From: Escherichia coli
GTDB lineage: Bacteria > Pseudomonadota > Gammaproteobacteria > Enterobacterales > Enterobacteriaceae
DNA length: 7,017 nt
Reading direction: 5' to 3' (one strand)
Assembly (NCBI RefSeq): GCF_003334385.1
Contig: NZ_QOWN01000074.1
Positions 265-1,966 of the stretch are shown piece after piece. A program made the translations under genes and the position numbers. The notes beneath the pieces are model-generated. The model saw only the letters and a list, made by a program, of their open reading frames with translations, searched no databases and had not been told where the DNA came from. Numbering within the stretch: position 1 is the first letter of the stretch; the number at the start of each line of letters is the position of its first letter.

Positions 265-753
265 TTACCAGTTGAAAGTGGGTAAACCCGGCAGGCATTC
301 AGCGCTGGCATCCAGATGAATGAGACTGACGCCATAACGTCGGGTAAGTGTGATAACCAGACGACGGAACGTTTTTGACAGCCCCAGGCGTTTAAGCCGC
401 AGAACCGGATATGACCACGCATCGGTACGTAACAGATATCCGCTACCTGTGAAATGAATCCATTCTGATTCACCAACGTCACTGGTCTGATGCGACAGCG
501 AGTACAGCCAGGCGTTATCCTTTTCCGTGATATGTGCGGTACTGCAGCGTATGCCGGCAAGGGTTGCAAACGGTGGTAGTGTGCAGGTTGACTGTTGGTC
601 GGATTCCTCCACCACGCGGAGTGAATAACCGTTTTCAGCGACCTTGTTAATCAGTTCAGTGAGATTAACACCATCGACGTCAACGACAATTCGCCCCATG
701 TTCAGTGCCTGCACATTAATTCTGTCGGCTTCCAGCATCAGGGAAAGTTTCAT
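265..753 (-). CDS. DUF5983-like hypothetical protein (162 aa), encoded immediately downstream of the CbtA-family toxin
   Basis: Track ORF 265..753 (-), [29 protein letters not shown]... Its ATG (751-753) overlaps the toxin stop TGA (750-752) as ATGA, implying translational coupling. Position and size match the gene usually following cbtA paralogs. Family name is from memory. Confidence 0.75.
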
Positions 754-1124
754 CGTTTCTCCGGATGCTTACCCAGGGTAATGTTATTTACCGTTCTGTA
801 ATTGTCGCGGGTCATCAGGCCGGTCGCCCGGCGAGCCCGGAGGATATCAATACTGTTTATTAACTGAGAGCGGGGACAAGTGCTGAATCCCGGCTGGTCG
901 GTACGCACCAGCGCGTATTTTTCCACGAGAAAATTCACCGCATCACACAGTGAAATGCCAGCTTCAATATGCTGCTCAATCACACGTTCATCGGCGAACG
1001 GTGTGTCATTCAGTGTAAGGCCGTAATGCTGGCCCAGTAGTCGGGAGAGCAGAGTCTGCCAGATGGTGACGGGAGACGGGCAGCTCGATGCCTCCCGTAC
1101 GTGTGTATCGGGTAATGTTTTCAT
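750..1124 (-). CDS. cbtA: CbtA-family toxin (YeeV/YkfI/YpjF paralog group; type IV TA toxin that inhibits FtsZ/MreB polymerisation), 124 aa
   Basis: Track ORF 750..1124 (-). Protein MKTLP...[64 protein letters not shown]...[17 protein letters not shown] is near-identical over most of its length to E. coli K-12 YeeV/CbtA as I recall it. Shine-Dalgarno-like AGGAAA about 11 nt upstream of the ATG. I cannot tell which paralog it is, so the symbol is a family-level label. Confidence 0.92.
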
Positions 1125-1213: not shown

Positions 1214-1582
1214 TTACTTTTTCGTTTCGGGCGTCGGATAAACAGCCAGATAAACGTAACCACCGCTACCGAGAGTGTCAGCTTTGCAGGTCAGACCTTT
1301 TGCATACAGCGTGACGGTATGCTGATGGCGGGGATTCAGTTCACCGCTGGTGAGCATGAGTTCCAGTTGTTTCATCAGCAGCGGAAAGGCCTGGTCCAGG
1401 TGGTACGCATCTGCATCGCTGAACAGGCCTCTGATACCGGCGCGGTCGGCAAGGTAATGCAGGCGGTTACCCTCCTGCACCAGACGGGCGCCGAAACAGG
1501 GCGTCACTGTGCAGGGTAGTCCCCACCAGGGATGGTCGTCATTGTCATCGGGATGCGTTGTCCCGGAAAGTGTGTCTGACAC
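1214..1582 (-). CDS. cbeA: CbeA-family antitoxin (YeeU/YafW/YfjZ paralog group), 122 aa, GTG start
   Basis: Within track ORF 1214..1690 (-). Sequence from [52 protein letters not shown]...[31 protein letters not shown] matches K-12 YeeU/CbeA as I recall it (K-12 begins MSDTLPGTT). The GTG at 1580-1582 aligns to the K-12 start and has a GAGGA Shine-Dalgarno about 7 nt upstream. The in-frame ATG at 1688-1690 (158-aa form) lacks a convincing RBS. An 89-bp spacer separates it from the toxin gene. Confidence 0.88.
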
Positions 1583-1744
1583 GATAAAATCCTCACAGAA
1601 AATCGGTGAATGATAGTTTAACGATGACGGGTCAGCCGGCGCGCAGACCGGCTTCGGTAAAGGTGTATTCGTTGATGAGCAGGACCTCATCCACAGCGGC
1701 GTCTGAGCTCAGCCAGTCGTACTCGTTTTCCGGGTGACGGAACA

Positions 1745-1966
1745 TCAGTTCAGGGTGACGCTCATCAGCCGGACATACGGACCAAAACTGTCCTTACGGC
1801 GTTCTGCAAACACGGCCAGCACACCGGGAATATCCTGCACTTCACGACCGGTATACGCTTCAGCACTGCCGTGCCAGCGGTATTTGCCGGTACAGAACGG
1901 AAAAAGACGGGATGCCGGATGCTGACGGTGAATACGCATGGCTTCGCCACGGGTGATGATTTTCAT
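1745..1966 (-). CDS. DUF987 small protein (YeeT/YkfH/YpjJ family), 73 aa
   Basis: Track ORF 1745..1966 (-), MKIITRGEAMRIHRQHPASRLFPFCTGKYRWHGSAEAYTGREVQDIPGVLAVFAERRKDSFGPYVRLMSVTLN. Matches my memory of YeeT-type proteins and sits between the radC-like gene and the antitoxin as in K-12 cryptic prophages. AGAGG motif about 10 nt upstream of the ATG. Confidence 0.85.
   Translation of the reverse strand: MKIITRGEAMRIHRQHPASRLFPFCTGKYRWHGSAEAYTGREVQDIPGVLAVFAERRKDSFGPYVRLMSVTLN

Follow-up and report, generated by a model that had tools for sequence, protein, structure and literature searches.

A GTG-started antitoxin gene of the YeeU/CbeA family and the DUF8835 deletion scar upstream of it in Escherichia coli

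The antitoxin gene and its GTG start

The DNA studied here (hereafter the window) is a stretch of 7,017 nucleotides (nt) from an Escherichia coli contig, and all its features are read on the minus strand. It carries a gene for an antitoxin of the YeeU/CbeA family, which lies between a yeeT-like gene and a gene for a CbtA-family toxin. An earlier note on the window had drawn attention to the GTG start codon of the antitoxin gene, to an ATG farther upstream in the same frame and to a small inverted repeat around this ATG. It had suggested that the choice of the start codon or an operator-like palindrome could tune the stoichiometry of antitoxin and toxin. We followed up these suggestions by comparison with homologous loci, 20 of which, all of the Escherichia type, were inspected base by base. 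The locus L001, which is 100% identical to the window, was the source of the RefSeq annotations used for comparison. The coordinates of the features are collected in Table 1.

Table 1. Features of the window discussed in the text (aa, amino acids; bp, base pairs; ORF, open reading frame).
Feature	Positions	Strand	Remarks
YeeU/CbeA-family antitoxin gene, 122 aa, GTG start	1214..1582	minus	RefSeq WP_001315620.1, exact span in L001
Shine-Dalgarno sequence GAGGA	1590..1594	minus	7-nt spacer TTTTATC before the GTG
Non-coding spacer, 49 nt	1583..1631	minus	DUF8835 stop to antitoxin start; two allelic versions
37-aa ORF	1632..1745	minus	3' remnant of the 214-aa DUF8835 gene; frame differs from that of the antitoxin
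In-frame upstream ATG	1688..1690	minus	lies across GAT-GAG, the Asp-Glu codons in the frame of the remnant
6-bp inverted repeat GATGAG-N6-CTCATC	1674..1691	.	by-product of the codons D-E-V-L-L-I
Deletion junction TGATG	1743..1747	minus	yeeT stop TGA shares one base with the junction-created ATG
yeeT-like DUF987 gene	1745..1966	minus	neighbour upstream of the antitoxin; L001 annotation; PHROG 14887, E = 2.6e-37
CbtA-family toxin gene, 124 aa, ATG start	750..1124	minus	annotated WP_000854753.1 in L001
DUF5983 gene	753-265	minus	
JAB/RadC gene	2520-2029	minus	
Antirestriction gene	3006-2521	minus	
DUF932 gene	3879-3061	minus	

The GTG codon (1582-1580) with a good GAGGA Shine-Dalgarno (SD) sequence was found where the earlier note had placed it, and the annotation, the SD energy and the conservation of the site agree on this start. 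The GAGGA motif, its 7-nt spacing and the start position were unchanged in 9 of 9 aligned E. coli loci. The calculated energy of the duplex with the anti-SD sequence was -6.0 kcal/mol for the GTG, as compared with -2.3 kcal/mol (20-nt window) or +0.4 kcal/mol (window from -18 to -3) for the ATG at 1690. The statement that the position aligned to the K-12 CbeA start is a GTG also held, as K-12 cbeA (b2004) itself starts with GTG; thus, GTG is not special to the window but the reference state. The GTG start is already known in the sense that the reference annotations (K-12, RefSeq) use it. The start codon of the homologous antitoxin is ATG in three loci (L002, L005, and L052).

The Pfam family PF06154 (CbeA_antitoxin) matched the antitoxin with E = 1.3e-52 over model positions 1-100 of 101. 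The match covers residues 54-153 of the 158-aa form that would begin at the upstream ATG, which are residues 18-117 of the 122-aa form, and the domain starts 17 residues past the GTG. The YeeU chains 2h28 (E = 3e-75) and 2inw (2e-73) of the PDB align from residue 38 of the 158-aa ORF, that is, from residue 2 of the 122-aa form. The solved structures 2jn7 and 2ea9 of the YeeU/YfjZ family matched the antitoxin at 1e-39. Thus, the gene product shows a full-length PF06154 domain and homology to the YeeU/YfjZ structures, and a CbtA-family toxin gene follows directly downstream, as is characteristic of the YeeU/CbeA family. Judged by this homology, the antitoxin and the toxin of the window are predicted to be an ordinary CbtA/CbeA-type (type IV) pair. 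The type IV mechanism, in which the toxin is neutralised via the action on MreB and FtsZ, is known for K-12 CbeA only (PMC5371832 and general knowledge).

The 122-aa form read from the GTG is the supportable gene call. From the sequence, we infer that ribosomes would initiate only, or almost only, at GTG 1582.

A DUF8835 deletion scar between yeeT and the antitoxin gene

The GTG is separated from yeeT by 162 nt, most of which is occupied by the 37-aa ORF MFRHPENEYDWLSSDAAVDEVLLINEYTFTEAGLRAG. A tblastn comparison aligned this ORF with residues 178-214 of the DUF8835 protein WP_000086755.1 (84% identity, E = 1.5e-15), the last 37 residues of which read LYRQLENEYDWLTSDAAVDEALLINEYTFTEAGLRAG in E. 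coli GmF052 (L002). An intact DUF8835 gene of 214 aa was found between yeeT and the antitoxin gene in L002, L051-L053, L019, L025, L030, and L031, and loci of Kluyvera, Serratia, Pluralibacter, and Yokenella likewise have a complete DUF8835 gene in this gene order. The RefSeq name of the product is "DUF8835 domain-containing protein", while earlier records called it "antitoxin of toxin-antitoxin stability system". At least two records (L002 831-1475 and L052 1-413) give the RefSeq product name with a spelling error, as "DUF8835 domain-containing pootine".

The removal in silico of 550 bp from L002 (813-1362) yielded the junction of the window with 6 mismatches over 110 nt. The deleted 550 bp comprise the 18-nt spacer between yeeT and DUF8835 together with DUF8835 codons 1-177. 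The junction of the window type is also present in L001, L037-L042, and L050, and its L038 version reads TAATG. In one of these loci (L042 675-1174, strain 602354), the match to the window ends at locus position 674, 3 bases before the antitoxin GTG. The annotation of this locus has an IS66-family (ISEc47) transposase gene from position 705 on but no antitoxin. What is left of DUF8835 in the window are its 36 last sense codons; the conserved CIWFSGFCxQGxGA core was deleted with codons 1-177. The 37-aa ORF is therefore a remnant and no longer a DUF8835 member in working order.

The 49-nt spacer that follows the DUF8835 stop codon comes in two versions. The allele of the window, AAACTATCATTCACC, is open in the frame of the antitoxin, and it was found in all six loci of the sample whose DUF8835 gene is intact or frameshifted as well as with the remnants of the window and L050. 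The other allele, AAACCATTCTTA[A/G]CC, carries a TAA or TAG 8 codons ahead of the antitoxin start.

The variable sites among the remnant loci are distributed 7:9:5 over codon positions 1:2:3. This is the pattern expected of decay, with no sign of purifying selection on the remnant. The same result bears on the idea that the remnant is translated by TGATG coupling to the yeeT stop, either as a micro-protein or as a process that alters the access of ribosomes to the antitoxin SD sequence. The one-base overlap of the junction ATG with the yeeT stop speaks for this idea, as does the fact that the ORF and its ATG are intact in 6 of 6 aligned remnant-type sequences, which diverge by up to 12%. The ORF is also widely called as a hypothetical protein, and its exact sequence is present on at least 1000 contigs. 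However, it has no SD sequence (-3.0 kcal/mol), 37 codons are expected to stay open by chance after ~13 substitutions, and much of the divergence may come from recombination with intact copies. Moreover, by general knowledge, the 49 nt to the GTG exceed the reach of termination-reinitiation coupling. We therefore consider a translated remnant unlikely, and the 37-aa ORF is read as a pseudogene fragment.

These observations suggest the following course of events. The ancestral layout had the 214-aa DUF8835 gene between yeeT and the antitoxin gene, and a deletion of 550 bp fused the yeeT stop straight to DUF8835 codon 178. The DUF8835 stop and the 36 sense codons before it were left behind, and an ATG born at the junction took the place of codon 178. 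The native 49-nt spacer with the ribosome-binding site of the antitoxin survived the deletion. The frame of the antitoxin is open across the scar by chance in this allele, and the antitoxin would be translated from GTG 1582 into the 122-aa protein. We conclude that the antitoxin very probably starts at this GTG and that the upstream ATG and the palindrome are leftovers of the DUF8835 deletion scar and neither a leader nor an operator.

Several searches were made for clues to the function of DUF8835. No hit was obtained at E <= 1e-3 when its AlphaFold model, which is a confident one (predicted local distance difference test score of 87.9), was compared with the PDB by Foldseek, and a phmmer search of the PDB found nothing. 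No Pfam-A family matched DUF8835, and no NCBIfam family matched DUF8835, the 158-aa ORF, the 37-aa ORF, or YeeT. Only families of unknown function were matched among the PHROGs.

The upstream ATG, the extension and the inverted repeat

As described earlier, the frame of the antitoxin is open upstream to the ATG at 1688-1690, so that an extension by 36 residues is possible. The resulting ORF (1214-1690) encodes 158 aa, and the N-terminal peptides of this form would read MRSCSSTNTPLPK... The ATG is one base out of frame with the DUF8835 remnant. It spans two codons of that frame, the Asp196 residue of which is invariant and the Glu197 residue nearly invariant among 31 homologs, and the ATG triplet is therefore held in place by the DUF8835 frame.

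If some ribosomes started at this ATG, a 158-aa isoform with a 36-residue tail would arise, and the choice of start could tune the amount or the properties of the antitoxin. This dual initiation is very unlikely. The search by anti-SD duplex energy found no SD sequence before ATG 1690, and the codon lies within another reading frame and in the stem of a predicted hairpin, of which it occupies part of the 5' arm. Neither the Pfam domain nor the part aligned to the solved YeeU chains would include the tail.

The homologous loci show that the extension is often closed. A TAA stands 8 codons before the GTG in 5 of 5 other sampled remnant-type loci (L037-L041, which comprise four distinct sequences with 87-95% identity to the window), and L037 and L041 have a second TAA that arose through a change of ATC to ATA. 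At the same distance, a TAG or TAA closes the frame in K-12, L003, L004, L005, and L008. The extension is absent in other genera. In most of their loci, the upstream frame meets a stop within 0-26 codons, and where it stays open for longer, it overlaps yeeT in a different frame. Among seven ungapped open-allele sequences, the 105 nt from the ATG to the GTG showed 12 substitutions in the extension frame, of which 3 were synonymous and 9 nonsynonymous. The synonymous fraction of 25% equals the chance expectation (25%), whereas the body of the antitoxin reached 59% (42 synonymous to 29 nonsynonymous) against an expected 24%. The length of the open frame is not unusual either: 88 of 508 stop-to-stop stretches in the window have at least 42 codons, and 47, 67, and 38 open codons precede the starts of the toxin gene, yeeT, and a 693-aa gene, respectively. 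Since open upstream stretches are so frequent in the window, the open antitoxin extension is within chance. The alignment of homologs proposed in the earlier note thus showed that the extension is not conserved, and the upstream stops that the note had named as evidence against it were found. The in-frame stops in homologs of the same architecture, the lack of an SD sequence and the lack of constraint at the protein level speak against a real N-terminal extension. The 158-aa form is an over-extended gene call.

Some observations weigh against a start at the GTG alone. The contrast in synonymous fraction between extension and body rests on 12 substitutions (Fisher p = 0.057). In all sampled loci that have it, the spacer allele CTATCATTCACC occurs with the frame open over exactly 42 codons and with the ATG kept (window, L050, L051, L052, L053, L002, L006, and L043). 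Furthermore, the 186-nt stretch from the junction to the GTG is present with at least 99% identity in 1944 chromosome or plasmid records among 5426 E. coli genomes. With such a frequency, the open form is common, and leaky initiation, if there is any, would be widespread. E. coli GE3 and ST131 isolates such as strain 4433 are examples of carriers of the allele. In the database proteins called at 158 aa, the variability of the extension does not exceed that of the core; this comparison was dropped as a test, as the set is conditioned on an open frame. A leaky start at ATG 1690, even with no SD sequence, is conceivable on sequence grounds. Finally, none of the three paralogous loci of K-12 contains the remnant, so that the published K-12 data cannot address the extension.

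The inverted repeat at 1674-1691, which encloses the ATG, was also found as described, with a perfect match over 6 bp, a 6-nt loop and a position ~100 nt ahead of the antitoxin start. It can be extended to 9-nt arms with 89% complementarity (1671-1679 and 1686-1694). Such a repeat might act as a regulatory element of the toxin-antitoxin pair, either as an operator bound by a protein or as a hairpin in the mRNA, and its 5' arm is indeed invariant in 9 aligned loci. This invariance, however, is explained by the conserved Asp-Glu codons, as the DUF8835 frame reads GTG GAT GAG GTC CTG CTC ATC (V-D-E-V-L-L-I) at this site. The 3' arm varies to CTCATA in L037 and L041 and to CTCGTC in L040, and the 5' arm does not compensate for these changes. 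The repeat was not found in the DUF8835 genes of other genera, which are 47-58% identical and keep the protein motif. Both the repeat and the out-of-frame ATG are already present inside the intact DUF8835 gene of L002, where they are part of a coding sequence.

The window contains 26 perfect 6-bp inverted repeats with loops of 3-12 nt, as compared with 18.0 +/- 5.4 in shuffled sequences. The hairpin was predicted to fold with -9.8 kcal/mol, as compared with -8.1 +/- 2.2 kcal/mol for the shuffles (z = -0.75), and 44 of 200 shuffles folded at least equally well. The number of repeats and the hairpin energy are thus close to the shuffle values, which places the palindrome at chance level. In the E. 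coli B derivative L043 (369-1012), a 1-nt deletion (GAGG-CCTG) shortens the loop of the repeat and shifts DUF8835 into the upstream frame of the antitoxin, which results in a single long open frame running into the antitoxin; RefSeq marks this DUF8835 gene as a frameshifted pseudogene.

The search for regulatory signals gave no better grounds for an operator. A scan for promoters and terminators over positions 1100-2100 detected nothing on the minus strand, including no sigma-70-like site. No Rfam family matched the whole window at the gathering threshold, and only sub-threshold noise from small nucleolar RNAs appeared in 1100-2100 at E <= 1. In the K-12 paralogs, the deletion of the toxin or the antitoxin leaves the mRNA of the partner unchanged, neither protein autoregulates the operon, and three upstream genes appear to be part of the same operon (Wen et al. 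2017, PMC5371832). A regulatory role of the repeat is extremely unlikely, and the proposal of an operator-like palindrome did not find support, given that one arm changes without compensation, the repeat is lost in distant homologs and occurs at chance level, and it lies in former coding sequence. No paper on the translation start of cbeA/yeeU or on the profiling of its initiation site was found in our literature search.

The scar itself could still have an effect. Reinitiation at the junction ATG or rare starts at ATG 1690 could alter the use of the antitoxin SD sequence and GTG, and recurrent losses and rearrangements of DUF8835 could in this way retune the ratio of antitoxin to toxin. Known events comprise deletions of the window type and of the K-12 type, the frameshift of E. 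coli B and the 343-aa fusions of DUF8835 with YeeU described below. We regard a scar with such an effect as highly improbable.

The reading of the spacer as a scar has consequences for annotation. In the public collections, the exact sequence of the 122-aa form is present on at least 1000 contigs, and its 90%-identity cluster has 3814 members. The exact 158-aa form was called on 151 contigs, and its 90%-identity cluster has 98 members; the accessions listed for it are all non-RefSeq and GenBank-derived. It belongs to the over-extended calls made by longest-ORF or ATG-preferring start selection and does not differ from them. Identical DNA has been deposited with the antitoxin as a 122-aa or a 158-aa protein and with the remnant as a 37-aa hypothetical protein, which is a real annotation inconsistency; the 158-aa and 37-aa calls exist because of the deletion scar. 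The spacer between yeeT and the antitoxin gene, that of K-12 included, is what a destroyed DUF8835 gene has left behind rather than a leader dedicated to regulation, and this origin is relevant before any search for promoters or operators there. The understanding of how CbtA/CbeA-type systems work is unchanged.

The surrounding island, the antitoxin family and comparison with known systems

The genes of the window follow each other on the minus strand in the order DUF932, antirestriction, JAB/RadC, yeeT, antitoxin, toxin, and DUF5983, and this block is part of a CP4-44-like island. The toxin gene begins 89 nt past the antitoxin stop. Of 5426 complete E. coli genomes, 4867 have similar blocks, and the median copy number per genome is three. 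The JAB/RadC gene contains a perfect inverted repeat with 10-bp arms, TGCCGGTGAA-N6-TTCACCGGCA (2268-2293), and no other perfect short-range repeat of the window is as long. Some of the loci compared (L004-L007 and L037) are short E. coli-type contigs in assemblies labelled as Lachnospiraceae, Arthrobacter, Collinsella, and Mesorhizobium. They are probably contamination, and two of them have coverage tags of ~0.7-1.5x.

The start codon of the antitoxin varies across the family. We assigned the start codons from the alignment and the SD energy. Almost every Escherichia-type locus uses GTG. Of the 25 loci of other enterobacterial genera with an assignable start, 9 have TTG as the start supported by an SD sequence (L009, L010, L013, L014, L017, L018, L029, L032, and L036, with starts near 1459-1510), and the remaining 16 have ATG. 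Non-ATG starts thus appear to be over-represented in this antitoxin family. A weak start codon may limit synthesis. From what is generally known of start-codon strength, it is plausible that a GTG or TTG start may lower the output of the antitoxin, independently of the upstream ATG.

DUF8835 takes part in other rearrangements as well. In L047-L049 (1501-2532), a 343-aa ORF consists of a full-length DUF8835 fused in frame to a YeeU-family antitoxin, and the gene at the toxin position of these loci matches PF06755. The fusion (junction at L048 2135-2165) arose through a change of TGA to TTA and a deletion of ~39 nt in the spacer, and it keeps an internal GAGGA and GTG. It was read in seven contigs, including one chromosome of 4.66 Mb, and L054 has the short spacer of the fusion loci with the TGA intact. 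A programmed frameshift as the source of the 342-343-aa proteins with DUF8835 and PF06154 was rejected, as the TGA to TTA change and the ~39-nt deletion, which removes the extension region, account for them. Chimeric DUF8835 ORFs were seen in P0083, P0089, P0099, and P0046, namely an antirestriction-DUF8835 fusion, a DUF8835-DUF5983 fusion, a DUF8835-antitoxin fusion via the "extension" frame and an internal duplication. These islands appear to break frequently at the DUF8835 gene. In Mixta tenebrionis (L029 1459-2474), DUF8835 lies directly downstream of the antitoxin gene, at the usual place of the toxin, whereas it lies upstream in the other loci.

The intact locus L002 (E. coli GmF052; DUF8835 protein WP_000086755.1) is collinear with the window over the 3' end of DUF8835, the 49-nt spacer, the SD sequence and the antitoxin start, with ~93% identity. 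The window differs from it by the loss of the 550 bp and the gain of the junction ATG, and the antitoxin of L002 starts with ATG, while that of the window starts with GTG.

The type II operators bound by antitoxins, as in relBE and mazEF, resemble the window only in that an inverted repeat lies upstream of the antitoxin gene. Unlike these operators, the repeat of the window lies in former coding sequence and not in a promoter, and it is not conserved. To our knowledge, no DNA-binding role has been reported for the YeeU fold.

The CbeA (YeeU)/CbtA (YeeV) system of the K-12 prophage CP4-44 shares with the window the order yeeS, yeeT, antitoxin, toxin, and yeeW-like gene. The K-12-type antitoxins are 92% identical to that of the window, and both belong to PF06154 and align to 2h28. 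K-12 cbeA has its GTG at the same position and with the same 7-nt spacing to the SD sequence, which is AAGGA in the K-12 type and GAGGA in the window. The spacers differ: that of K-12 between yeeT and cbeA is 73 nt long and keeps the first 8 DUF8835 codons, ATGAGCAGAATTATCGCCACTACC (L044 553-576), while that of the window is 162 nt long and keeps the last 36 sense codons. The upstream spacers of the K-12 paralogs yfjZ and yafW are 37 and 18 nt long, respectively, and contain no DUF8835 remnant. The deletion of DUF8835 in K-12 is a larger event and independent of that in the window, and a TAG 8 codons before the GTG rules out the extension there.

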